Origin: a virus
Taxonomy: Duplodnaviria > Heunggongvirae > Uroviricota > Caudoviricetes
IMG/VR virus record: IMGVR_UViG_2703718806_000011
Span: 1 to 8,790 of that record
Strand: one strand, 5' to 3'
DNA: 8,790 bases
Shown here: piece by piece, positions 1-8,790 of the stretch
Position numbering within the stretch: the first letter of the stretch is position 1
Layout of the letters: every line of letters starts with the position of its first letter
The notes under the pieces: model-generated
The model's input: only the letters and a program-made list of their open reading frames with translations
Told to the model about the DNA's origin: nothing
The model's database searches: none
Program-made: the position numbers and the translations under genes

Positions 1-114
1 AACACGCGCATAATTTTCGGCTGTCATGCTGTCCGGCTGCGTGGCCTGTTCGTCAGCCTGCTGGCTGATTCCGGCGACGCGGCGGATTAATCCCAGTATT
101 TCGGCTTCTGTCAT
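1..114 (-). CDS. Hypothetical protein, N-terminal 38 codons only (MTEAEILGLIRRVAGISQQADEQATQPDSMTAENYARV...); runs off the window start
   Basis: ATG at 114-112 with a G-rich stretch (GGGGG) 5 nt upstream; open frame to position 1. Too short in-window to appear in the ORF track. Sits downstream of the capsid gene, so possibly another head-module gene (inference). Confidence 0.35.
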   Translation of the reverse strand, partial: MTEAEILGLIRRVAGISQQADEQATQPDSMTAENYARV

Positions 115-255
115 TGTGCCCCCATCGCGCTGGTGAAGAAAACAAGCTCAGATTTTTTGTAAAGAATCTGTCACGCTAAAAGATGTCGAACAAAAATTAA
201 CCACAATCATCATCTTTTTTGCATCAACAACATTAAAAACAACAGGTTACACACA

Positions 256-350
256 TGATGATGATGACGATAAAATCACAAAAATGCGCTTTTTTCCGCG
301 CCGCCCGCCCCGTGTTCAGGCCCACCCCACCAGGAGGACCCGCAAAAAAG
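256..350. repeat. Copy 1 of a ~95-bp direct repeat (core 281-350, about 93% identical to 2818-2888), with a (GAT)n-like trinucleotide stretch at one end
   Basis: Aligned by eye against 2793-2888. Shared core AAAATGCGCyTTTTTCCGCGCC...GCCCCGTGTTCAGGCCC(A/C)CCCCACCAGGAGGACCCGCAAAAAAG. Confidence 0.6.
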
Positions 351-365
351 GCGGCTGGTGCCGCC
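341..365 (-). terminator. Rho-independent terminator just after the capsid gene stop
   Basis: GC stem GGCGGC-tggt-GCCGCC (350-365), followed on the minus strand by TTTTTTG (349-343); lies 6 nt beyond the stop at 372. Confidence 0.6.
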
Positions 366-371
366 TTGTTG

Positions 372-2261
372 TCATAGTGAATCGGTACCACCTGATTTGA
401 CCATACCGCGATAATCCAGAGCTGCCACACCTGCATCAATACGGACTTTCCAGGCCACGCCGTCAACGATAAAACCTTCCTGCTGTTCAAGGTAAGGTTC
501 GTCATTACCATCAAGATAAGCCACCTCGATTGTGTCCGTTCCCTGTGCGGAAAGCATGTACCATTGTTTTTCGCTGATATCATCAAGGCGGGGATCGACG
601 ATGATATCAAGTAGCTTGTGATACGGGTTAAAGATCCCGCTGTTTTTATCAGCCCCGAAAGGTGCGGTTGAGTTAATCATCTGCAACGCGCGATCTTCCA
701 GTGCTGCCGGAACTAAAAGGAATTTAGGCGCAATATTCAGCACTTCGCCATTTTTGTCCTTCTGTGTGCGCATCAGGTGACGTGCTGCACTAAGTCCCGG
801 TGTTGTCAGTCCTGCTTCAATCAGGTTGCTGTGTTTTTTGTCAAACAGCGTTATTCCGTCAGAAAGTTTTACGTTGCCTGTAAGCACCAGATTAACCAGA
901 TTTCCCACCGTTCTTGATGCTGCACGGCCCATAGCCATTGGCACCGTTGATAACTGATCAAGGTCATCATTGATTATCGCCTGGCGGGTAATGCTGAAAA
1001 TATTCCCGTAAGTAGCCAGCGCGATGGGTTCACCGCGATCGCTGGTGGTGATGTATTTATATTCTGCCCCTTCCGGCACTTTGTTTAACGTTGAGAAGCC
1101 ATTCATACCAACGCGGCGGGCTTCCCGGAAGTTTGAAAGGGAACCTTTTTTCGTCCACTGGCGGAATGTTTCGCCACTGTGCTCCCAGCCTGCAAGCACT
1201 GATTTTTCAGCGCCACCAGCAAGGATATCGGTAAAATCGCTGCTGCTGTGGGTGAATGCCGCGTTTACTATCTGCGAGCGTGTGCCGTAGCTGCCCGTGC
1301 TTATACCACGATGGGTTAATGATGCCTGTGCCATATCGAAAAGGCTCATCATGGCGTAAGGATTACCGCGTTCGGCCCGTTCGTGACCAAGACGCGCATT
1401 AAGCCCCTGACGCATGGCATCGCCGGTTATATTGCCGTTATCCGTGTACGCGTAGTAAAGATTTGCGGGGGTGGTTTTGTTTGTTGGCGTTGATTCTTTA
1501 CCCATAGCGAGTAAAAGGCGTTCGCGTGCATTCTCAACGCTACATTCTGAATCCGCAAGACAACTTATAGCCAGGTCGTTATATCTTCCGTTGAAGGTGC
1601 CAAACAATTCACGGATTCCGTTAAGTCGTTCCTGTTCGCCACTGCCAGTTTTCTGGCTGATCATGCTTTTAATTTTTTCCGGCATATTTGAAAAATCTCC
1701 GATTCGTTTTGATTCAATTCGGGCCATTGCTGTAATCGCGGGTATAACCTCATCTGCGAAGCCGTTAGCCTTACACTCATTGCCATCCATCCAGGTTTCC
1801 GCCTCCATCATGGAGGTGATCTCCTGTTTGCTCCTGCCCGTTCTTCCGGCATAGGTTTCTGCCATCGTGTCGCCCAGCTTGTCCATCAGATCAGCAAAGC
1901 GGCGAACGTCGCCCGACACTCCGGCAGTAACACCACGGGGGGCATGTATCATCATCATCGCGTTTTCAGGCATAACGATGTGATCTCCACACATGGCAAT
2001 AAACGACGCCATAGAAGCCGCCATGCCTTCAATGTGTACGATTTTTTTTGCCGGATGATTTTTCAGGGCGTTATAGATAGCCAGCCCTTCAAAGATGTCG
2101 CCACCAGGTGAATGAATGCTCAGATGGATTTCAGACGCATTACCACACGCGTTGATCTCGTCAGTAAGTGCCGATGCTTTTACACCGTACCCGCCGATCT
2201 CGTCATAAATGCGCACATAGACAACATCTGCCATAGCCTTAATGGAAAACCATGTTTTCAT
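372..2261 (-). CDS. Prohead serine protease (ClpP family) fused to HK97-fold major capsid protein, 629 aa
   Basis: N-terminal ~170 aa aligns with ClpP around the catalytic residues: IHSPGGD, GMAASMASFIA (compare ClpP GQAASMGAFLL, catalytic Ser) and MMIHAPRG (compare ClpP VMIHQPLGG, catalytic His). The C-terminal ~400 aa has the length and composition of an HK97-family capsid protein. RBS TAGGAG 8 nt upstream of the ATG at 2261. Confidence 0.85.
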   Translation of the reverse strand: MKTWFSIKAMADVVYVRIYDEIGGYGVKASALTDEINACGNASEIHLSIHSPGGDIFEGLAIYNALKNHPAKKIVHIEGMAASMASFIAMCGDHIVMPENAMMMIHAPRGVTAGVSGDVRRFADLMDKLGDTMAETYAGRTGRSKQEITSMMEAETWMDGNECKANGFADEVIPAITAMARIESKRIGDFSNMPEKIKSMISQKTGSGEQERLNGIRELFGTFNGRYNDLAISCLADSECSVENARERLLLAMGKESTPTNKTTPANLYYAYTDNGNITGDAMRQGLNARLGHERAERGNPYAMMSLFDMAQASLTHRGISTGSYGTRSQIVNAAFTHSSSDFTDILAGGAEKSVLAGWEHSGETFRQWTKKGSLSNFREARRVGMNGFSTLNKVPEGAEYKYITTSDRGEPIALATYGNIFSITRQAIINDDLDQLSTVPMAMGRAASRTVGNLVNLVLTGNVKLSDGITLFDKKHSNLIEAGLTTPGLSAARHLMRTQKDKNGEVLNIAPKFLLVPAALEDRALQMINSTAPFGADKNSGIFNPYHKLLDIIVDPRLDDISEKQWYMLSAQGTDTIEVAYLDGNDEPYLEQQEGFIVDGVAWKVRIDAGVAALDYRGMVKSGGTDSL

Positions 2262-2452
2262 AGCCAGGCTCCTAACGTTGCCTGGTACCAGTATTCAACC
2301 GCGCTGCGTGTGATTTGTCCTTTCGTGGGCACTGGCATACCCGGGTGATTATCTTTGATGAACTGCTGATAGCGTTCGATCTTCTCCATAGTTCCGGCGT
2401 CTATGTGCACAGTGGCACTTTTATCCGGCTTTCTGGTGTTGTTCTCTGGCAT
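2258..2452 (-). CDS. Hypothetical small protein, 64 aa from the favoured start at 2452 (ORF track start 2485 gives 75 aa); translationally coupled to the capsid gene
   Basis: GGAGG lies 7 nt upstream of the ATG at 2452, whereas the ATG at 2485 has no Shine-Dalgarno. The stop overlaps the capsid start (ATGA). Predicted strand-helix-helix pattern (ATVHIDAGTMEKIERYQQFI...) suggests a small DNA-binding or assembly factor (inference). Confidence 0.5.
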   Translation of the reverse strand: MPENNTRKPDKSATVHIDAGTMEKIERYQQFIKDNHPGMPVPTKGQITRSAVEYWYQATLGAWL

Positions 2453-2647
2453 AAATCCGCCTCCGTTTTGATTAACGGGCATCATTATTGATCGATAAAA
2501 GTAATAGATAAATCATTTTCTACCTGAAAATCAGATTATGTTTTTTCTGATTATTCTCAGAAAGGCAAAGTTATTGACGCATTTTTGCCATTGAAGCAGT
2601 ATTAAGACTCGTCATCCTGGCGATAAAAACTCCTTTGTCGTGTAAAA

Positions 2648-2683
2648 GCGCCTCCGGTAACAGCAATCGGGGGCGCTTTTTTT
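2648..2683. terminator. Intrinsic terminator, strongest in the plus orientation and probably bidirectional
   Basis: Stem GCGCCTCCG (2648-2656) / CGGGGGCGC (2668-2676) with one G-U pair, followed by TTTTTTT (2677-2683) on the plus strand and preceded by AAAA, which gives UUUU on the minus strand. Confidence 0.5.
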
Positions 2684-2792
2684 GCGCCTGTTTTTTTGTA
2701 AATGCTTTCGGGAACGCTCCAGTGATGAACAAAAAACAACCTGATTCGACACTAAAATTTTTTATTCCTCAATATATCAATAACTTATAGTG

Positions 2793-2888
2793 GTGGTGAT
2801 GGTGCCATAAAAATCAAAAAATGCGCCTTTTTCCGCGCCCCTCCGCCCCGTGTTCAGGCCCCCCCCACCAGGAGGACCCGCAAAAAAG
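2793..2888. repeat. Copy 2 of the ~95-bp direct repeat (pairs with 256-350); carries a C8 tract at 2859-2866
   Basis: Aligned by eye with 256-350. The two copies differ by one indel and a few substitutions, so plus-strand reading frames through them are not conserved, arguing the element is non-coding. Confidence 0.6.
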
Positions 2889-2904
2889 CCGGATTGCTCC
2901 GGCT
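2880..2904 (-). terminator. Rho-independent terminator after the SSB-like gene
   Basis: Stem AGCCGGA-ttgc-TCCGGCT (2887-2904) followed on the minus strand by a T-run (complement of 2881-2886); lies 16 nt beyond the stop at 2920. Confidence 0.6.
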
Positions 2905-2919
2905 TCTGTCACTCGTTGC

Positions 2920-3177
2920 TTAAAACGGTATGTTATCCCCGTACGGATCATCGTTACCCGCCACGCTCACCAGTTCGCCTTTGTGGTGTTTTGCCAGTGC
3001 GTCGGCCTGTCTGCCAAACGCCAGGACGGATAACCACATCGTCGCCGTTCCGTCATCGGCCTGGCTGCACGGCAGGGGGATAGCCATACCCGCCATCGCC
3101 ATTTGTGTACCCTTGCTGGTGGTCTTTAACTGTGGGTCAGCCACCAGCCGCCCGTAAGCGGCTATCTGTGCTGTCAT
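2920..3177 (-). CDS. Truncated SSB-like OB-fold protein, 85 aa, ending in an SSB-type acidic C-terminal tip (...DDPYGDNIPF)
   Basis: The N-terminal part resembles the start of E. coli SSB (IAAYGRLVADPQLK vs VILVGNLGQDPEVR; WLSVLAFGRQADALAKHHKGELVSV vs [26 protein letters not shown]), and the last residues DNIPF match the SSB tip DDDIPF. Start overlaps the upstream gene stop (ATGA). Confidence 0.6.
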   Translation of the reverse strand: MTAQIAAYGRLVADPQLKTTSKGTQMAMAGMAIPLPCSQADDGTATMWLSVLAFGRQADALAKHHKGELVSVAGNDDPYGDNIPF

Positions 3178-3443
3178 GATTCCACCTCTCCGGTTTTAAT
3201 GTTGATGGTTGTTACCTGTTCCGCTTCGGCAATCTCCCGTTCTGTCAGCGTGGCAAAGTTTGCCGCCGCTGTGGTCATGAATGCGCTTATCAGTTCGGGA
3301 TGTTCCTTCGCGTATCCTTCCCCCGCGTGGCGGTCTATTACCCTGATTGCTACCTTTAAGGCGTGCTCTGTCATGTCTAACGCTTTATATTTTGGCTCTG
3401 TTCTGTCTCTGCGCATTTTGGTTATCTCCTCACTCATGCTCAC
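3174..3443 (-). CDS. Hypothetical protein, 89 aa (GTG start at 3443; alternative ATG at 3437)
   Basis: Plausible composition; GAGG lies 7 nt upstream of the GTG, inside an ori iteron; coupled to the downstream SSB-like gene by a 4-nt overlap. Confidence 0.5.
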   Translation of the reverse strand: MSMSEEITKMRRDRTEPKYKALDMTEHALKVAIRVIDRHAGEGYAKEHPELISAFMTTAAANFATLTEREIAEAEQVTTINIKTGEVES

Positions 3444-3630
3444 TTTTGCGCCTCACTTTTTAAAGCGTCTCGCTTCGTCTCACTTGATATTTTTGATGTT
3501 TTTATGTGCATGTTTCATAAGGATTTTTTACTCCTCACTTTTTGGGGTATATATACGTTGAAAAGTGAGGAGTTCAGGGGGTTTTTCGTGCAATTCCTCA
3601 TTGTCCTCACTTTTGCGCCTCACTTTTTAC
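3429..3630. repeat. Putative origin of replication: iterons of consensus CCTCACTTTT around an AT-rich core
   Basis: The 23-bp unit CTCACTTTTGCGCCTCACTTTTT occurs at 3439-3461 and 3606-3628. A perfect 12-bp inverted repeat CTCCTCACTTTT (3531-3542) / AAAAGTGAGGAG (3561-3572) flanks a TATATATA spacer. Partial copies at 3429-3435, 3477-3486 and 3596-3603. AT-rich stretch 3481-3530. Lies immediately 3' of the replication gene. Confidence 0.55.
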
Positions 3631-5036
3631 AGAGGGCCTACATCATCACCGTCGATATAAATAACCCCGTCTTTTTCCAGCTTGCGTAGCCAGCGGCTGA
3701 AGTTTTTCATTTCGTACCCCAGCTTTTTCATATCGTCACGTAACAGCGGGATCGTGCACTTGTCGCCGTGCTGTGTGCGTGACCGGATACATCCCCATAG
3801 CGCAGCATGATTCTCCGTCTTGTTGCCAGCCTCTTCGATGCGCTCCAGTTCAACGGGAGGACGCGGCTTATCCACCACCACCAGCGACGTGATTAACTCC
3901 CCGTCAGCGTCGGTAAAAAGCTCCACCACCCGCAAATCATAGGCAGCCTCTTTGAGTTCCTCCGCGTCCTTCATTTTGGTGCATGAGATAACCAGCGCTT
4001 CGCTTCCTGCGTCCTCCCTGCGTATCCGGTATTCAGCGTCCAGTGATGCACGAAATGCACTGGAACCACGCGCCCCCTTTGTTTCATCCTTGCCGGAATG
4101 GTGAACCACCAGCACCGTAGCCCCTGTGCGCCGTTTAAGCTCGTCACAACCACGGATAAATGCCCCCATGTCGCGGGAGTCATTTTCATCATTGCCGCCA
4201 AAGCAACGCGCCAGCGTGTCCAGAATAATCATGCGAACAGGTTTACCCGTTTCCCTCTCCACCTGACTGGCAGCAATAACCAGTTCATCAACATCAAGCG
4301 GGACAGCCGGAAAGATGGGACGGTTTACCAGATACAGATTTTTCACCTGCTCACCGTGCACAACCTCCCAGGCTTTTACACGACGCGGAACGCCGATACC
4401 GCCTTCACCAACCACATAGAGAACAGCGCCATGCGCCACCCTGCGGCCTCCCCACTGGCGGCCCGTGGAAACGTGACACGCCCACGATCCGGCAAGGAAT
4501 GATTTATAGGAACCGCTCGCCCCGTATATGCTGCAAAGCGACGATGCCGGAATAATCCCCTTTACCACGTAATCAAGCTGTGTGTCGTATCCGGTAGATC
4601 CAACGCTCATCGGTAGCTTGGTTTTTCGCTGGGGGATTTTTTTCATGACCAGGCTTTCCCCGCGTTCCCATGCCTCCCTAAGCCGTGGAAGCTGGTCGCT
4701 CCATTCCTCCAGCAATTCGAAATTTTCAGAAAGTAGCCGCGCCTCCTGGACTCCGGCGATCGCCAGTTTCGTGGCGATGGTTAACAGCTGCGGCTCTTCA
4801 ATATTTCCGGCGCGTATCACCGTCGCCCTGTATCGCCCATCATCAACAATCTGGAGGTTATCCAGTTCGCTTAACTGATAACGCCCCAGATAAACGGGAG
4901 GGACTGGATCGCCTGCTTTTTTGGCCTGTGCAATGATGTAATGCTCTGCGAATGAGTGAGCATCAATACCCGCAAAAATAATCGCATCGGTGTATTTATC
5001 TTTCGGTAATCGTTTTACGTTCGGTGCCAGTTTCAT
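3627..5036 (-). CDS. Replication protein with a RepA/DnaB-like (RecA-fold) ATPase domain, 469 aa; primase/helicase-type satellite replication initiator
   Basis: P-loop-like IYGASGSYKSF, Walker B-like RMIILD, and HHSGKD, as in RepA-like helicase domains (from memory, unverified). AGGGG lies 6 nt upstream of the ATG at 5036. Start overlaps the upstream gene stop (ATGA). Confidence 0.8.
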   Translation of the reverse strand: MKLAPNVKRLPKDKYTDAIIFAGIDAHSFAEHYIIAQAKKAGDPVPPVYLGRYQLSELDNLQIVDDGRYRATVIRAGNIEEPQLLTIATKLAIAGVQEARLLSENFELLEEWSDQLPRLREAWERGESLVMKKIPQRKTKLPMSVGSTGYDTQLDYVVKGIIPASSLCSIYGASGSYKSFLAGSWACHVSTGRQWGGRRVAHGAVLYVVGEGGIGVPRRVKAWEVVHGEQVKNLYLVNRPIFPAVPLDVDELVIAASQVERETGKPVRMIILDTLARCFGGNDENDSRDMGAFIRGCDELKRRTGATVLVVHHSGKDETKGARGSSAFRASLDAEYRIRREDAGSEALVISCTKMKDAEELKEAAYDLRVVELFTDADGELITSLVVVDKPRPPVELERIEEAGNKTENHAALWGCIRSRTQHGDKCTIPLLRDDMKKLGYEMKNFSRWLRKLEKDGVIYIDGDDVGPL

Positions 5037-5332
5037 TTTTTACCCCTGAATCCGTTAATCATGGTTTTCAGCTTCTGGATGTTTGCCCGTGCCCTGGCGT
5101 TGCTGGTGGGCACGTTATGCGGCGCGGTCTGTACCAGAGAAAAATCACGCCGGAACTGATAAACAGGCATCACGCAATCATATTCGTAACCTTCACGGCG
5201 GTAAGTTACGCACCGTCCCGCCACGCCCTTAATCATTACCGTGCCGCCGTACTGGTCGCGGTAAATATCACCGCGCGTAAATTTAGGGTGAGTGTTGCCA
5301 CTGGCAGTTAAGCCAGAATATTTAAGTTTCAT
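5033..5332 (-). CDS. Hypothetical protein, 99 aa; resembles small conserved proteins found beside replication genes in P4-like prophages
   Basis: ORF-track protein with GDIYRDQYGGTVMIKGVAGRCVTYRREGYEYDCV, probably beta-rich. GGAG upstream of the ATG at 5332. Last gene of the small-gene operon before rep. Confidence 0.6.
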   Translation of the reverse strand: MKLKYSGLTASGNTHPKFTRGDIYRDQYGGTVMIKGVAGRCVTYRREGYEYDCVMPVYQFRRDFSLVQTAPHNVPTSNARARANIQKLKTMINGFRGKK

Positions 5333-5337
5333 TATTT

Positions 5338-5571
5338 TTATTCTCCGGTGTGCTGTTCGTTATATCTGTCGTGCAATTGGTCTATTTCTTGTAGTTCCAT
5401 TATTACAGGCTCAAGAAGCGTTATTAATGCCGTGACAATTCTTGATTTTTGTTTGTCGCGTTCATTGTCGCCAAGTGTTTCAAGCCATATGCGCAATATT
5501 TCCAGCATGTTTTCACTGTGAGAAAGTGCAATAAATGCGCGGTCTATTGTTTCAAGGTAAATATCACGCAT
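5338..5571 (-). CDS. Hypothetical small protein, 77 aa, predicted helical
   Basis: AGGGGG then TAAT before the ATG at 5571; the upstream gene stop TAA is 1 nt before the start. Confidence 0.6.
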   Translation of the reverse strand: MRDIYLETIDRAFIALSHSENMLEILRIWLETLGDNERDKQKSRIVTALITLLEPVIMELQEIDQLHDRYNEQHTGE

Positions 5572-5572
5572 A

Positions 5573-5794
5573 TTACCCCCTGCCAGACATTTTTCTTAAA
5601 TCAGATTCAGCAATATATTCCGCATAATCGGCAGTAATATTCAGTACGTCTATTCCAGTTGATTTATATTCTTTCGTGCCAAGTAAGAAAAATGCCGCTC
5701 TTATCAGTTCGGATATTGACGAAAGCGCATCACCTGCATCATCAGGCGCACCATCAAATTCCTTTTTCAGGGAATTAAAACGATCATCACGCAT
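5573..5794 (-). CDS. Hypothetical small acidic protein, 73 aa from the favoured start at 5794 (ORF track start 5842 gives 89 aa)
   Basis: The internal ATG at 5794 is preceded by the G8 tract that also encodes the C-terminal glycines of the upstream gene, and overlaps that gene's stop (ATGCGTGA). The longer N-terminal extension is hydrophobic and has no Shine-Dalgarno. Confidence 0.5.
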   Translation of the reverse strand: MRDDRFNSLKKEFDGAPDDAGDALSSISELIRAAFFLLGTKEYKSTGIDVLNITADYAEYIAESDLRKMSGRG

Positions 5795-6008
5795 AACCCC
5801 CCCCATTTTCACAATCAGCAACAAGAATATTTTTAGCGTCATTCAGCGACCGCGTGGCGGTGTATCGGATACATTCCAGGGCGAACGATGTGTATTCTTC
5901 CCGTTCTTCCTTTCGTGCAAGCTCTGCTGTGCATTCAATATCAATAAGCGCGTGCATCAGCGTAGTGAGTGCGGCGGCGGCTGCGTCCGGTGTGGTTTTA
6001 TTGCACAT
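5787..6008 (-). CDS. Hypothetical small acidic protein, 73 aa from the favoured start at 6008 (ORF track start 6062 gives 91 aa)
   Basis: GGAGGGG lies about 4 nt upstream of the ATG at 6008; the ATG at 6062 has no Shine-Dalgarno. C-terminus ...ENGGGYA. Confidence 0.5.
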   Translation of the reverse strand: MCNKTTPDAAAAALTTLMHALIDIECTAELARKEEREEYTSFALECIRYTATRSLNDAKNILVADCENGGGYA

Positions 6009-6228
6009 GTACCCCTCCGCATTTTTTTTCGTTAGAAATAAGCGTTCTTCTTTCCTGTTCATCGCTCAGGAATACGCAGACCTCACCGCTAAGGCGTTTA
6101 AGTAAGCCGATGATTGCCCCTGATTCGCTGTCGGTCATCATGCCAGGGTAATCCTCTGCCAGTGCGCAAATAACTTCGATTTGGTGGGCGCGTTCTGCTG
6201 CCTGTTGTAGTGTGATTTCCTGGCTCAT
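5998..6228 (-). CDS. Hypothetical small protein, 76 aa from the favoured start at 6228 (ORF track start 6285 gives 95 aa)
   Basis: AGGAGG lies 8 nt upstream of the ATG at 6228, which overlaps the upstream gene stop (ATGA). The longer form would begin inside the upstream gene with a Cys-rich, implausible N-terminus. Confidence 0.55.
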   Translation of the reverse strand: MSQEITLQQAAERAHQIEVICALAEDYPGMMTDSESGAIIGLLKRLSGEVCVFLSDEQERRTLISNEKKCGGVHVQ

Positions 6229-6419
6229 AAGCCTACCTCCTGACGAATACGGGCGGCAAATACAGCAACACAACCGGACGGGCAACGGCTACGCGCTTCG
6301 CGTTCCGTCCAGGCGGTTACGTGGATGATTTGAGATTCTCCGGCACTCAGTGCCAGAAAACGCCACATAAAGGCAGTTTGTGTGTGTACAAGGTGTGGTA
6401 TATGATTTACGGCAACCAT
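6225..6419 (-). CDS. Small protein, 64 aa, first gene of the early operon; possibly Icd-like (host cell-division inhibitor family common in P4-like prophages)
   Basis: Strong RBS GAGGAG 6 nt upstream of the ATG at 6419. The Icd-like assignment is from memory of the family pattern (aromatic-R-F-L-A-L core) and is unverified. Confidence 0.55.
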   Translation of the reverse strand: MVAVNHIPHLVHTQTAFMWRFLALSAGESQIIHVTAWTEREARSRCPSGCVAVFAARIRQEVGL

Positions 6420-6450
6420 AACGGCTCCTCGTTTACGTTGTTGGTTAGAA

Positions 6451-6491
6451 GCCCTGCGAGTGGTAACGACACTTGCGGGGCTTTGCTTTTT
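6451..6491 (+). terminator. Terminator-like hairpin plus U-tract on the plus strand; role unclear
   Basis: GCCCTGCGAGTG (6451-6462), loop GTAACGA, CACTTGCGGGGC (6470-6481), then TTTGCTTTTT. Two G-U pairs are allowed only in the plus-strand RNA; in the minus-strand RNA they become C-A mismatches. Confidence 0.3.
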
Positions 6492-6508
6492 ACTGTACCT
6501 ACTGATAT

Positions 6509-6552
6509 TGTACGTACGTAACGGAAATGATAATAGGAGTTACGTACGTACA
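6509..6552. promoter_or_regulatory. Palindromic operator: perfect 14-bp inverted repeat TGTACGTACGTAAC / GTTACGTACGTACA, arms separated by 16 bp
   Basis: Arms at 6509-6522 and 6539-6552. Each arm contains the self-complementary 10-mer TACGTACGTA, with copies 30 bp centre to centre. Overlaps both the early promoter and the RHH translation start. Confidence 0.6.
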
Positions 6553-6558
6553 TGTCAA
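6530..6558 (-). promoter_or_regulatory. Near-consensus sigma70 promoter for the minus-strand early operon
   Basis: On the minus strand: -35 TTGACA (6558-6553), 17-bp spacer, -10 TATTAT (6535-6530). Predicted transcription start near 6523, about 100 nt upstream of the first operon gene at 6419. Confidence 0.55.
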
Positions 6559-6743
6559 CATTAAAGCGCGATAAATCGCCACGCGGTGAGGGATGGTCTC
6601 CAACCTTCCAAATCAGAATCAGTAAAGAGCTACGCCAACAAGTAAATGAAGCTGCAACTTCTGACGGTCTAACCCTTGGTAACTGGTTTAAAGAATTAGC
6701 CAGGGCAGAACTAAAGCGGCGCGGCATAGAACCCAAAGGGTAA
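6552..6743 (+). CDS. Ribbon-helix-helix (Arc/CopG-like) DNA-binding protein, 63 aa; candidate repressor of the early operon
   Basis: Strand-helix-helix pattern FQIRISKELRQQVNEAATSDGLTLGNWFKELARAEL. The only convincing plus-strand gene, divergent from the early operon. AGGAG lies 12 nt upstream of the ATG, which sits inside the operator and the spacer of the opposing promoter. Confidence 0.6.
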   Translation: MSTLKRDKSPRGEGWSPTFQIRISKELRQQVNEAATSDGLTLGNWFKELARAELKRRGIEPKG

Positions 6744-6834
6744 TTACATTGCCCACCAGCCTGATAGCGGCTATCATTCCCGTGCTTATGTTTGGGATCA
6801 CATACACATAAGGCGCAGCAGGTTAATTGTTCAG

Positions 6835-6867
6835 AAAGGCGGCTCCATATCGGGGCCGCTTTTTTTA
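6835..6867 (+). terminator. Rho-independent terminator downstream of the RHH gene; may also stop convergent alpA transcription
   Basis: AGGCGGC ... GCCGC stem followed by TTTTTTT (6861-6867). Confidence 0.5.
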
Positions 6868-7007
6868 TGCCTGAAAAACCCCAATTTTGTTGTTTTTCAG
6901 TTTCACCAGGGCGAACGAATCCCCGCCCACGTTCGGGCGCATATTCAATCTTCATGGTTATATCTCTGTATTAGTGGATGTGTGGCGACTGTGTGCCGCC
7001 AGTCTTT

Positions 7008-7196
7008 TTAGTGAACTGCCTTGCAGCTATCCTTCCAGGCCAAAACCTCAGATAAAGACCAGCCAACAGAACGCCCGCCAAGTTTACGACGTGATGGGAA
7101 TTGTCCGGCCTTTTCCAGGCGGTAGCGGCATGAGCGGCTAAGGCCTGTTAGCTTTTCGCATTCTTTTTCACGTATAAACCGATCAGTGCTTAACAC
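7008..7196 (-). CDS. alpA: AlpA-family (excisionase-like, MerR-type) phage transcriptional regulator, 62 aa, GTG start
   Basis: ...EKLTGLSRSCRYRLEKAGQFPSRRKLGGRSVGWSLSEVLAWK matches the AlpA helix-turn-helix pattern. AAGGGGG lies about 4 nt upstream of the GTG at 7196. Confidence 0.8.
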   Translation of the reverse strand: MLSTDRFIREKECEKLTGLSRSCRYRLEKAGQFPSRRKLGGRSVGWSLSEVLAWKDSCKAVH

Positions 7197-7247
7197 TATT
7201 GCCCCCTTTCGTTTCTTAAAGAGTCATCAGGTGTCTTATTGTGTCGT

Positions 7248-7276
7248 ATTGTTCCCGCTAGTGTGGTGAATGGCAA
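7248..7276 (-). promoter_or_regulatory. Candidate sigma70 promoter for alpA
   Basis: On the minus strand: -35 TTGCCA (7276-7271), 17-bp spacer, -10 AACAAT (7253-7248). TATTGT-containing direct repeats at 7231-7255 overlap the -10 and start region. Confidence 0.3.
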
Positions 7277-7345
7277 ATGTTGATGTCGTATGGTTTACAG
7301 AAAGAGGAATAATCAGGATAAAATCATTTAAATTCATGTTAATAC

Positions 7346-7378
7346 AAAGGCATAAAATCTTGTTTTATGCCTTTTTTC
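7346..7378. terminator. Hairpin terminator between int and alpA, probably bidirectional
   Basis: GGCATAAAA-tcttg-TTTTATGCC (7349-7371), followed by TTTTTT on the plus strand and by TTTGTATT on the minus strand. Confidence 0.45.
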
Positions 7379-7468
7379 GCACGCTTTAACGCGTAATTCG
7401 CTAATGTATAAAAAACCAGTTAACCAATAAAAATCAGTAACTTATAAATCTGTATTCTTTTTGGCCTC

Positions 7469-7518
7469 TTGTTCGTGATTGTGTCACGTTGTTGCACATT
7501 GTTTCACGTTGTATCTGT
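7469..7518. repeat. Five direct repeats with exact 10-bp phasing (TTGTnnCACG-like) just 3' of int
   Basis: TTGT at 7469, 7479, 7489, 7499 and 7509; units TTGTTCGTGA, TTGTGTCACG, TTGTTGCACA, TTGTTTCACG, TTGTATCTGT. Confidence 0.4.
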
Positions 7519-7560
7519 GCACTTATCCAGTATGTGCATACTGAAAAAACACGAAAAAAA

Positions 7561-8790
7561 TTATTTTATTCTGGTTACTGGTAGCGTGGTTACGTTTTCA
7601 TGTGCTCCCGCCAGTATCCCTAACCGCTCCGTCCACATATCCAGCGCATCACGTTTCGCATCGAGATAACGGGAGTGGTTATAGACTCGTTGCATCCCTG
7701 GCATCTGATGACCTGTAAGCTGCTCCACGACGTGAGGATCCACGCCCAAATCATTCAGCATCGTTGTAAAGGTGCGCCGGATGTCATGCAATGACCATTG
7801 AGGGTGTTTTAGCCTCCTGTGCGCTAATCTGCCGTACTGCGATACGCTGGCCTCCTGTTTCACTTCCCCCAGTAATAAGCCCGTGTGCCTGTTCTGGTCC
7901 ACCAGCCGCGTGACGAACGGCAGGATCGCTTCCGGTATGGGCCGGAATATTGCAACCTTCGTTTTGCTGTGCTCCTTCGGAACGGTCCATAGCATTTCGG
8001 TAAAATCCCACTCGCTGATCTCCGATAACCTCAGTTCTACCGTCCTGGCTCCGAAGACAATCAGGAGGCGGATTAACGCGACGTAGTAAGGAGAAAATAT
8101 TTTTTTATCCAGCGCCTGCAATAACTCGCCCAGTTCTTTGGTGCTTAAGACACGTTCGCTTATATCCGGTTTTTTCCCAACGTCCGCCACGTTCAGATCG
8201 TCCAGAACGTTGCTGATTGCATAGCGCCGCCTACGGCAGAATTTAAGCGCCTGTTTGCATGTCTGTAGCAAGAATCCGGCAGTAACAGGTGTTCGCTTTG
8301 CCACCTGATCAAAACAGGCCAGCCAGTGCCGTAGCTCGCATTTATCCAGCGGCATAGCACCAATTTTGATGATTATGTTTTTATTGATCCGGCTTTTCAG
8401 TGATTCGTAATCTGTGCGCTTTTCCTTTGCGTACGACTCAAGCCAGTAGGTGAGCGCATCGCCAACCGTTGCAGGCTTTAACGCTTCCTGCATGGTGTAA
8501 TTCAGTTCATAGCGTGGATTTTTCCCCTCAGCCAGCCATGCGCGACACTGTGCGGCTTTTTCCCTGGCTGCTTTCAGGCTCAGATCGGGATAATTTCCCA
8601 GCTTAACGCGTTCAGGTTGTGTCCCTCTTCCCGTTCCGGCCCTGTATGTGAAATACCAGGTTAAAAGGCCGCTGGTTGAATGCCTGACGCTCAGGTTTCC
8701 ACCGTCATTAAGAAAGGCTGTTTTTTGGGCGGGTGTGCCGTTGATTTTCCTTAGCTGTGTGTCACTCAGTTTGTTAAGTGCTCTGCTCAT
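7561..8790 (-). CDS. int: P4-type tyrosine integrase (site-specific recombinase), 409 aa
   Basis: N-terminal arm-binding-type region (LSDTQLRKINGTPAQKTAFLNDGGNLSV...), and C-terminal catalytic motifs HDIRRT (HxxR) and GHQ...VYNHSRY (catalytic Tyr). The ATG is the last three bases of the window (8788-8790). Confidence 0.9.
   Translation of the reverse strand: MSRALNKLSDTQLRKINGTPAQKTAFLNDGGNLSVRHSTSGLLTWYFTYRAGTGRGTQPERVKLGNYPDLSLKAAREKAAQCRAWLAEGKNPRYELNYTMQEALKPATVGDALTYWLESYAKEKRTDYESLKSRINKNIIIKIGAMPLDKCELRHWLACFDQVAKRTPVTAGFLLQTCKQALKFCRRRRYAISNVLDDLNVADVGKKPDISERVLSTKELGELLQALDKKIFSPYYVALIRLLIVFGARTVELRLSEISEWDFTEMLWTVPKEHSKTKVAIFRPIPEAILPFVTRLVDQNRHTGLLLGEVKQEASVSQYGRLAHRRLKHPQWSLHDIRRTFTTMLNDLGVDPHVVEQLTGHQMPGMQRVYNHSRYLDAKRDALDMWTERLGILAGAHENVTTLPVTRIK

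Follow-up and report, generated by a model that had tools for sequence, protein, structure and literature searches.

Positions 1 to 8,790 of IMG/VR virus record IMGVR_UViG_2703718806_000011 (the window, 8,790 nucleotides (nt) analyzed at full length) probably belong to a satellite of the capsid-forming phage-inducible chromosomal island (cf-PICI) type, and positions 6378-6743 likely serve as the control region of this island. Within this region, a 63-amino-acid (aa) protein is encoded head-on to the early operon; by sequence profile, PHROG family and predicted fold it is an Arc-type ribbon-helix-helix (RHH) protein. We propose that the RHH protein represses the early operon from two matching operator sites, limits its own synthesis and is backed by an antisense RNA as a second layer of control. 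This mechanism as a whole is given a probability of roughly 0.7 on comparative grounds, where the anatomy, conservation, co-variation, fold and RNA structure of the region were established computationally.

In the proposed mechanism, Arc-like RHH dimers would bind two matching sites with the core GTACGTAC. One site fills the spacer between the -35 and -10 elements of the early promoter and the other covers the early start site, such that binding would shut off an operon that opens with a toxic Icd-like gene and continues into replication and capsid genes. The left site also overlaps the -10 element and start of the weak RHH promoter, through which the RHH protein would limit its own synthesis. 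This second promoter would fire head-on into the early promoter, with starts predicted ~5 nt apart, leading to mutual exclusion. As a second layer, an ~80-nt antisense RNA of the RepX type, with its promoter inside the first early gene, would pair with the ribosome-binding site of that gene and silence leaky transcripts.

Candidate operator arms and opposing promoters

The two candidate operator arms (coordinates of all features are collected in Table 1) are 14/14 complementary across a gap of 16 nt. Perfect inverted repeats of at least 12 nt with a gap of at most 40 nt number three in the window and appear in 0 of 60 dinucleotide shuffles, and only the pair at 6509-6552 reaches 14 nt. The inverted repeat described in an initial annotation of this DNA is therefore present and above chance. 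That annotation had taken a 10-mer, TACGTACGTA, as the operator sequence. Two matching sites are indeed found, with the 10-mer present inside the arms at 6511-6520 and 6541-6550, but comparison among relatives indicates that the 10-mer is allele-specific and that the recognition unit is the 8-bp core GTACGTAC within the 14-bp arms. This core occurs exactly twice in the 8,790 bp of the window against an expectation of 0.04, and two or more copies are found in 0 of 200 shuffles.

Inspection of the sequence around the arms reveals the two opposing promoters that had been annotated initially. The early promoter agrees with the sigma-70 consensus at 11 of 12 positions in a promoter scan, has a predicted start at ~6523 and points toward the Icd-like gene and then the replication and capsid genes. 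Its -35/-10 spacer is occupied by the right arm, and its -35 hexamer contains the start codon of the RHH gene. The left arm spans +1 to +14 of the predicted early transcript together with the end of the RHH promoter's -10 element and its predicted start (~6518). This weaker promoter, of the extended -10 type, is accompanied by a -35-like TTGCTT at 6483-6488 that lies within the terminator tail of the antisense RNA. Given predicted starts at ~6523 (leftward) and ~6518 (rightward), RNA polymerase at one promoter would occupy the other. For the predicted sites, the placement of the arms is the geometry expected of a repressor that would shut a strong promoter and limit itself.

To learn which of these elements are conserved, the region was compared across ~170 related loci. 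A one-genome-per-species scan contributed 80 loci, nearly all from Enterobacterales, and a scan of viral contigs contributed 80 more, many of them on contigs of 8-17 kb. The initial annotation had proposed a search of related satellites for the arm pair beside an RHH gene, and this pair recurs in a canonical set of 53 loci from more than 10 genera of Enterobacterales, 37 of which are non-redundant. In the canonical layout the start codon contributes its A as the last base of the right arm, TGTCAA comes directly after, and the left arm lies 14-17 nt upstream. The 14-nt arms take the form GT-NNNN-AC, often within AGGT....ACCT, and always share an identical core within a locus as the spacer between them drifts.

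The promoters are conserved along with the arms. The minus-strand -35 element, TTGNCA, is invariant in the canonical loci, and in 51 of the 53 the RHH gene has TCA as its second codon, a degree of conservation that points to constraint at the level of DNA. A minus-strand TAnnnT stands at a spacer of 17 or 18 nt in 28 of the 37 non-redundant loci, compared with at most 4 loci at any other offset. These results support the early promoter as real and conserved. On the plus strand, TAnnnT begins 2-3 nt before the left arm in 32 of the 37 loci and is preceded by TG in 25 of those, giving the consensus TGnTAnnGT. The weak extended -10 noted initially thus abuts the left arm in most of the family, and the face-to-face layout with predicted starts ~5 nt apart holds across it.

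The RHH protein, its gene and its co-variation with the arms

The RHH protein comprises a beta-strand, S16-P-T-F-Q-I-R-I23, followed by helices at residues 25-37 and 42-56. An AlphaFold2 model built from an 18-sequence alignment (mean predicted local distance difference test score of 73) returns an extended segment at residues 18-24 and both helices, which together constitute an RHH fold. The top Foldseek matches of this model are all Arc, with probabilities of 0.99-1.0 and target-normalized template modeling scores of 0.72-0.85, followed by PutA, CopA, AmrZ and CopG. When a profile of 39 homologues is searched against the PDB, the best matches are all RHH proteins, with P22 Arc at the top (E 0.09) and SvtR and MazE7 besides. 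The PHROG family phrog_228, 'Arc-like repressor', is matched by the window allele at E 1.9e-4 and by the O157 allele at E 1.5e-6. The scores are marginal but consistent, and they agree with the initial description of the 63-aa protein as an RHH protein. Alignment of the strands pairs K-S-P-T-F-Q-I-R-I of the island protein with K-M-P-Q-F-N-L-R-W of Arc, such that T18, Q20 and R22 fall opposite Arc Gln9, Asn11 and Arg13. These three Arc residues are the ones that contact DNA.

The gene that encodes this protein has been overlooked in database annotation. Over 189 nt, the window and a relative differ at 32 positions; 29 of these are third positions of RHH codons, and a single residue is altered. 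By this measure the reading frame is under purifying selection. The islands of Escherichia coli strain 105 (locus L006) and O157 (locus L005) align across the RHH region with an open frame of 63 or 57 codons, at which RefSeq places a long coding sequence (CDS) or pseudogene on the opposite strand instead. We also located EcCIEDL933, the published prototype cf-PICI, at 1,680,329-1,694,760 of the EDL933 chromosome. Its control region is exactly that of L006, and its RHH frame (1,682,612-1,682,803) lies beneath a 247-aa 'hypothetical protein', WP_001304194.1, on the opposite strand. This frame begins with a TTG codon at 1,682,803, on the complement strand of the chromosome. Among 5426 complete E. 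coli genomes, the O157 allele is found in 328-349, always annotated solely as an antisense 'Icd-like' feature, and the window allele in 24-32.

The competing long minus-strand open reading frame (ORF) measures 182 aa in the window, 247 aa in EDL933 and 314 aa in L005, and carries the RefSeq names hypothetical protein and 'Icd-like' or 'ash family' pseudogene. It has no family matches and, unlike alpA, no third-position bias outside its overlap with the RHH gene. It was rejected as a real gene and is probably a shadow ORF that hides one. Some alleles have a further plus-strand ORF of 62 aa after the RHH gene (L005:2532-2720, L006:2554-2742 and EcCIEDL933; phrog_21027, of unknown function), located in an insertion of ~230 bp that the window lacks.

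What the RHH protein likely recognizes is indicated by co-variation. Across the related loci, the central tetranucleotide of both arms tracks the alternate strand residues 18 and 20, defining nine residue/operator classes. Residues T,Q accompany ACGT in most loci and many genera. Q,R accompany GACC, GGCC or GGTC (GRYC) in EcCIEDL933 and 23 viral contigs, and Q,K accompany GGCC with a TC flank (L055, L057). P,H are found with GTAC or GTGC (GTRC; L040, L041, L047), A,Q with ACAC (L010 and viral contigs), I,S with CCAT (L011 and viral contigs), M,N with CTAT (L030, L050 and one viral contig), M,P with ATAT (L056, L058), and P,Q with AATT in the O157 allele. Arg22 is invariant, F19 and I23 are nearly so, and the outer GT..AC of the arms is constant. 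Every locus with the beta-strand SPTFQIRI keeps the GTACGTAC core, and the mapping of residues to cores was reproduced by the independent scan of viral contigs. Within whole islands the operator core is confined to the switch, with two copies in the 17 kb of L001, the closest relative of the window, and two in a 44-kb stretch of EDL933. The two arms are thus likely operators of the RHH protein, as the initial annotation supposed, with the support for this assignment being comparative.

In one viral contig of the A,Q class (L162, ~300-400), the left arm, GGTACGTACC, is of the T,Q type and the right arm, GGTACACACA, of the A,Q type; this contig is possibly an intermediate in operator switching.

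A second family of small proteins is found in the position of the RHH gene. The RHH protein itself scores 20.7 bits against the YlcI/YnfO family (NF041551), under the cut-off of 30, and kinship between the two is probably distant. True YlcI/YnfO genes (59.7 and 67.4 bits) fill the same slot in other islands, at L002:3290-3605 and L004:2040-2356, where the islands are otherwise ~90-99% identical to the window flanks. These cassettes have repeated sites of their own: AGGTGTGGCCCAC occurs twice in L004, where a leftward promoter, TTGACG-18-TATAGT, has one copy within its spacer and the other just after its -10, and GTGTT(G/A)AACAC occurs three times in L002. A RepX-like RNA is kept upstream of both cassettes. 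Given their weak alignment to the RHH strand, the YlcI/YnfO proteins may likewise be regulators of the RHH type.

The predicted antisense RNA and its island

The RHH gene had initially been described as the sole plus-strand gene. This was wrong, since a structured small-RNA gene occupies ~6413-6492, within the span then reported. Its putative promoter lies within the opening codons of the oppositely oriented Icd-like gene and, with 8 of 12 consensus positions, is below the threshold of the promoter scan in the window. In 38 non-redundant loci, a near-invariant T-A-n-n-n-T, commonly TAGACT or TATGCT, ends 7 nt before AGCCAU and is often preceded by an upstream TG/TTGAtn, and the overlapped protein-coding genes differ among these loci.

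The RNA is composed of two stem-loops and falls, at ~80 nt, within the ~75-85 nt of RepX-type RNAs. Helix P1 pairs ACCA (6415-6418) with UGGU (6442-6445) in the window; in its GCCA/UGGU form, this helix has a G-U pair that works on the plus strand only. Stem-loop 1 carries an anti-Shine-Dalgarno CUCCUC (6425-6430) in or near its loop and is followed by the linker GUUGUUGGUUAG and stem-loop 2, which folds at -27.6 kcal/mol on the plus strand versus -16.3 kcal/mol on the minus strand. Stem-loop 2 is more stable on the plus strand in 50 of 50 distinct loci, by a mean of 6.6 kcal/mol, because its G-U pairs would be A-C mismatches on the other strand. The same comparison led us to reject the 6448-6484 hairpin as a leader of the early mRNA. 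In a clade of Pectobacterium and Brenneria, stem-loop 2 lacks the U tail. In the window, the RNA is complementary to both the start codon (6417-6419) and the Shine-Dalgarno sequence of the Icd-like first early gene.

With a covariance model derived from 16 sequences, 61 copies are recovered; every one lies on the plus strand and, except for a second match in L060, just upstream of an RHH or YlcI/YnfO gene. Over 58 distinct sequences, 94% of cells are paired and 17 of 21 pairs show compensatory changes, which is equaled in 0 of 500 shuffles. Stem-loop 2 emerged only with the covariance model; RNAalifold on a plain MAFFT alignment gave stem-loop 1 alone. In a subgroup of Pantoea and Erwinia, the gene for an RHH homologue directly follows a hairpin with the loop GGTGTTGGTAGC, which resembles the linker motif of the antisense RNA.

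The island model also finds a full-length match in the IncQ1 plasmid pMS260, antisense to repA's ribosome-binding site (30 bits, E 6e-6). RepX of R1162/RSF1010 is a 75-nt copy-control antisense RNA that overlaps the ribosome-binding site and start codon of repA (PMC8136791), and the island RNA is most likely a diverged RepX relative, as judged by sequence and architecture. Rfam scans of the window, 12 relatives and a 141-nt core returned no family at threshold, including the C4/CI RNA of P1/P4 and SymR. RF00043, with its threshold of 55 bits, scores 15.6 bits in the window and 31.7 in L030, and both matches fall on the strand that does not encode the proposed RNA. The RF00043 consensus matches the repA-coding strand, including AUGGCUAC at the repA start: in pMS260 (L090) it matches 1501-1546 (+), versus 1490-1576 (-) for the island model. 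In the window, its weak match falls at 6412-6483 (-). RF00043 may represent the sense strand, which would explain its weak matches opposite to the proposed RNA.

The gene covered by the antisense RNA is a SymE-family toxin in four loci (L055:2087-2380, L057:2037-2381, L059:2004-2369 and L065:2076-2369, all minus strand; Pfam E 3e-18 to 5e-12). These cases suggest that the gene in the first early slot usually encodes a toxic product.

Table 1. Positions of the features of the control region and neighboring genes in the window; coordinates with a locus name refer to that locus.
Feature	Position	Strand	Description
Left candidate operator arm, TGTACGTACGTAAC	6509-6522	none	Core GTACGTAC at 6510-6517; inverted-repeat search
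Right candidate operator arm, GTTACGTACGTACA	6539-6552	none	Core at 6544-6551; last base is the A of the RHH ATG
Early promoter	6530..6558	-	-35 TTGACA 6558..6553, 17-nt spacer, -10 TATTAT 6535..6530
Putative RHH promoter	6503..6511	+	Extended -10: TG 6503-6504, hexamer TATTGT 6506-6511
RHH gene	6552..6743	+	63 aa; ATG 6552-6554 overlaps early -35; Shine-Dalgarno AGGAG 6535-6539
Terminator-like hairpin with T run	6987..7009	+	Would end the RHH transcript; terminator scan only
Putative antisense-RNA promoter	6378..6406	+	-35-like TTGTGT 6378-6383, 17-nt spacer, -10 TATGAT 6401-6406
RepX-like cis-antisense RNA, ~80 nt	6413..6492	+	Covariance-model match 6410-6496, 65 bits
Stem-loop 2 / intrinsic terminator	6448..6492	+	15-bp stem 6448-6484, tail UGCUUUUU; terminator scan
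First early gene, Icd-like putative cell-division inhibitor	6225..6430	-	NCBIfam phage_ICD_like E 1e-17
Long minus-strand ORF	6407-6955; L006:2211-2954; L005:1988-2932; EDL933_RS32265	-	Open across the RHH gene, both promoters and the RNA gene
alpA	7008-7196	-	Pfam Phage_AlpA E 5e-18; transcribed toward the RHH gene
Integrase gene	7561-8790	-	Pfam integrase domains; transcribed toward the RHH gene
Protease-capsid ORF	372-2261	-	Single ORF of 629 aa; N-terminal part protease-like by eye

Inspection of the remaining genes places the control region in its island. The window holds an integrase gene, alpA, a RepA-family helicase gene (Pfam AAA_25, 2.8e-43) and a putative protease-capsid ORF of its own, along with a DUF4222 gene, and its control region is homologous to that of EcCIEDL933, an island for which induction and mobilization by a helper phage have been demonstrated experimentally in the literature. 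The gene order agrees with published Gram-negative phage-inducible chromosomal islands (PICIs) and cf-PICIs. The Icd-like gene starts at ATG 6419..6417 behind the Shine-Dalgarno sequence GAGGAG (6430..6425), and the helicase gene lies ~1.4 kb downstream of this first gene of the operon. The 629-aa ORF sits where L001 has separate prohead-protease and major-capsid genes, and the nearest E. coli relative is an island in tqsA with portal, protease and capsid genes. The terminator-like hairpin at 6987-7009 stands tail to tail with the alpA stop codon (7008-7010). Pfam families of flanking ORFs in related loci include AlpA, integrase, Ogr/Delta, Rha, SymE and primase, with most ORFs lacking a family. 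The full 6200-7300 stretch is present in 3 of 5426 complete E. coli genomes and its flanks are common to 1161, from which the middle part appears to be an exchangeable cassette.

Two further observations concern the window outside the control region. Three direct repeats of TGTC(G/T)TAT(T/G)GT(T/G), at 7232, 7242 and 7284 (7232-7295 overall), overlap a promoter-like site upstream of alpA (7276..7248, minus strand) and are candidate sites for AlpA autoactivation or helper-phage input. A stretch of ~200 bp at 147-348, overlapping the 3' end of the protease-capsid ORF, shares 89-91% identity with regions that lack annotation in Stx1- and Stx2-converting phages; it could be a shared packaging or recombination site.

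Alternatives and known control systems

How the proposed switch would be induced is a matter of speculation. On the most likely route, transcription driven by AlpA from upstream would read antisense through the RHH gene, circumventing the repressed promoter and at the same time reducing RHH synthesis. Such read-through is possible because a terminator scan of the window finds no minus-strand terminator between alpA and the RHH gene. Pseudomonas AlpA is described in the literature as an antiterminator.

Several points weigh against a repressor-based switch. AlpA is necessary for PICI induction, and its over-expression is sufficient (PMC6092414), so the repressor may not be the master control. 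With only 40 bp between them, the RHH gene and its operators would be inherited together regardless, so that their co-variation counts for less than co-variation with unlinked sites would. The center-to-center distance of the two cores, 34 bp, is not a whole number of helical turns and hence does not imply cooperative binding. One of the two arms has been lost from several T,Q loci (L044, L048, L061), 9 of the 37 non-redundant loci lack a clear minus-strand -10, and Pantoea and Erwinia homologues with the strand SAAFQLRI (L063, L073-L086) have neither the inverted repeat nor the TTGACA/ATG overlap. The only Pfam match of the RHH protein is HicB, at 18.2 bits (E 0.0024) against a cut-off of 21, and it covers only the generic RHH segment. 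With identical arms, it is also a puzzle how the RHH promoter would stay active when the early promoter is shut. RHH binding, repression and the induction route are what we infer from the region, and both start sites are predicted ones. Against the argument from linkage, the arms change in concert, the core is constant per class across distant genera, and the protein changes only at DNA-facing positions.

Of the alternatives, the one that fares best holds that the module is a plasmid-type controller of replication copy number rather than a lysogeny-style switch. In this case the module would throttle the replication proteins after induction, as do protein F with RepX in IncQ plasmids and CopG with RNAII in pMV158, and quiescence would follow from the absence of AlpA. 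The antisense RNA appears homologous to IncQ RepX (PMC8136791), the replication protein of the island is a RepA-family helicase as in IncQ plasmids, palindromes are also seen, on direct reading of the sequence, within the spacer of the IncQ P4 promoter and immediately behind its -10, and AlpA is the demonstrated on-switch (PMC6092414). However, the RNA targets the Icd-like or SymE-like first gene and not the helicase gene ~1.4 kb downstream. Unlike copG or the gene for F, the RHH gene is not part of the operon but faces it head-on; homology with protein F was considered and rejected (hhalign probability 0.5%), and hypervariable specificity is more typical of immunity regions. Copy control as a replacement for the switch is therefore doubtful. 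The two are compatible, and copy control is equally open as the main role of the module after induction.

A second alternative, which we consider very improbable, is that the inverted repeat matters mainly as an RNA hairpin, hiding the Shine-Dalgarno sequence and AUG or acting as a read-through structure, with the match to the protein being incidental. A transcript from upstream of 6500 would indeed fold the arms into a 13-14-bp stem that buries AGGAG and AUG (-33.9 kcal/mol, z = -3.8), and the clade whose antisense RNA has no U tail could read through into the RHH gene. In contrast, the conserved -10 puts the predicted start inside the left arm, and RNA from 6518 retains a stem of only 5 bp with no excess stability (z = +1.15). 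In classes Q,R and Q,K the two sites agree fully when read as direct repeats (10/10 and 11/11) but are only 8/10 complementary, and the central bases of the arms track DNA-facing residues, for which an RNA stem would have no need. Pairing of the arms in the RHH mRNA to sequester its ribosome-binding site, as suggested initially, is unlikely.

It is similarly hard to credit that the RHH protein serves as antitoxin in a toxin-antitoxin pair, with the palindromes as its autoregulatory operator: some database entries name homologues 'HicB family antitoxin' in keeping with the weak Pfam match, neighboring genes are of toxic types (Icd-like, SymE-like) and some alleles have the second 62-aa ORF, but the HicB score is under the cut-off, a total of 63 aa leaves no room for a toxin-neutralizing domain, the window has no co-transcribed toxin gene, annotation of the E. 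coli relatives shows no HicA partner and none is found among the 25 Pfam families listed for 88 flanking ORFs, and the operators sit on the promoter of another operon.

Each component of the proposed repressor switch has precedent. In P22 immI, tiny RHH repressors act on a strong promoter that overlaps an opposing weak one, and an antisense RNA blocks translation of a harmful gene. These components are the RHH repressors Arc and Mnt, the overlapping promoters Pant and Pmnt, and the sar RNA. Arc is the nearest protein to the island RHH protein by profile, PHROG family and fold, with the strand P-T-F-Q-I-R against P-Q-F-N-L-R. The island differs in having no antirepressor gene and one RHH protein rather than two. 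Its operator consists of two sites 34 bp apart around the -10, compared with a single operator of 17 or 21 bp in P22. The RHH start codon falls within the opposing -35, the RNA is of RepX type and unrelated to sar, and the host element is a satellite island and not a phage.

The likeness to the IncQ plasmids R1162/RSF1010 lies chiefly in the RNA, where RepX has the same anti-start AGCCAU, a stem-loop 1 with an anti-Shine-Dalgarno, the linker GUUGGUGGUUAG and a stem-loop 2. A small repressor coupled with an antisense RNA is common to both systems, as is a RepA-family helicase. They differ in that the target of RepX in IncQ is repA, as opposed to the Icd-like or SymE-like first gene of the island, and that the island repressor is unrelated to protein F and encoded head-on outside the operon. 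The SymE/SymR pair also resembles the module, with a cis-antisense RNA that starts just inside a toxin gene and covers its ribosome-binding site, and SymE is the target in the four related loci above. The target in the window is Icd-like, not SymE, and the Rfam symR model gives one weak match, at 29 bits against 61.

Resemblance to the P2 (Pe/Pc) and 186 (pR/pL) switches concerns layout only: converging promoters with operators between or over them, conserved here with overlapping predicted starts, make transcriptional interference plausible. Start sites in the P2 and 186 face-to-face pairs are tens of bp apart. Those of the island are predicted ~5 nt apart, such that the polymerase footprints would coincide, and the fold of the repressor differs. 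No second regulator of the Cox/Apl type is seen among the listed ORFs of the window, in which no search aimed at Cox/Apl homologues was made.

In proposed role, satellite quiescence, the RHH protein resembles Stl of the Staphylococcus aureus pathogenicity islands (SaPIs) and Rpr of Gram-positive PICIs, and its gene likewise lies between int and the replication operon, opposed to the operon. Stl and Rpr proteins are much larger and of a different fold. They are absent from the profile and fold matches of the RHH protein, all of which are RHH proteins, although no direct sequence comparison to Stl or Rpr was made. Stl and Rpr are inactivated by binding helper-phage proteins; Gram-negative PICIs are instead switched on by AlpA (PMC6092414). 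That the RHH protein is a Stl-like master repressor is accordingly put forward as an inference beside AlpA, the known activator.

Gram-negative PICIs, the capsid-forming ones among them, are described as without a known repressor; whether they have one is said to be unclear, and the founding paper calls the contrast with Gram-positive islands 'a mystery' (PMC6092414). A recent survey of satellites treats HicB and YlcI/YnfO only as accessory genes. We found no paper that links PICIs to an RHH repressor in a literature search of incomplete coverage, so that one may exist. Taken singly, RHH repressors, face-to-face promoters and RNAs of the RepX type are known; the combination is new in its extreme compaction (a start codon in the opposing -35 and predicted starts ~5 nt apart), in its series of specificity variants and in its occurrence in Gram-negative PICIs.

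The many specificity variants suggest that the module is an immunity determinant that distinguishes co-resident islands. A more far-reaching and tentative reading joins these strands: the RHH protein may be the missing maintenance repressor, the counterpart of Stl and Rpr, hidden by ORF calls on the opposite strand, with the beta-strand/operator pairs and YlcI/YnfO cassettes as immunity groups and antisense transcription driven by AlpA flipping the pair of promoters. If true, immunity groups would let islands coexist or exclude one another, and termination-resistant AlpA transcription through the RHH gene would flip the head-on pair to the early state.

The presence of the module in the prototype EcCIEDL933 provides a concrete and cheap test of the repressor question in Gram-negative PICIs, and a related allele is carried by ~330 of 5426 complete E. 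coli genomes. Systematic misannotation can also be flagged: the CDS called at the module is on the wrong strand and bears the name 'hypothetical', 'Icd-like' or 'ash'. The nine classes constitute a natural table of two beta-strand residues versus four operator base pairs, useful for RHH recognition rules and for orthogonal small repressors. Finally, antisense control of the RepX type extends from IncQ plasmids to phage satellites, where it would guard toxic Icd-like and SymE-like genes.

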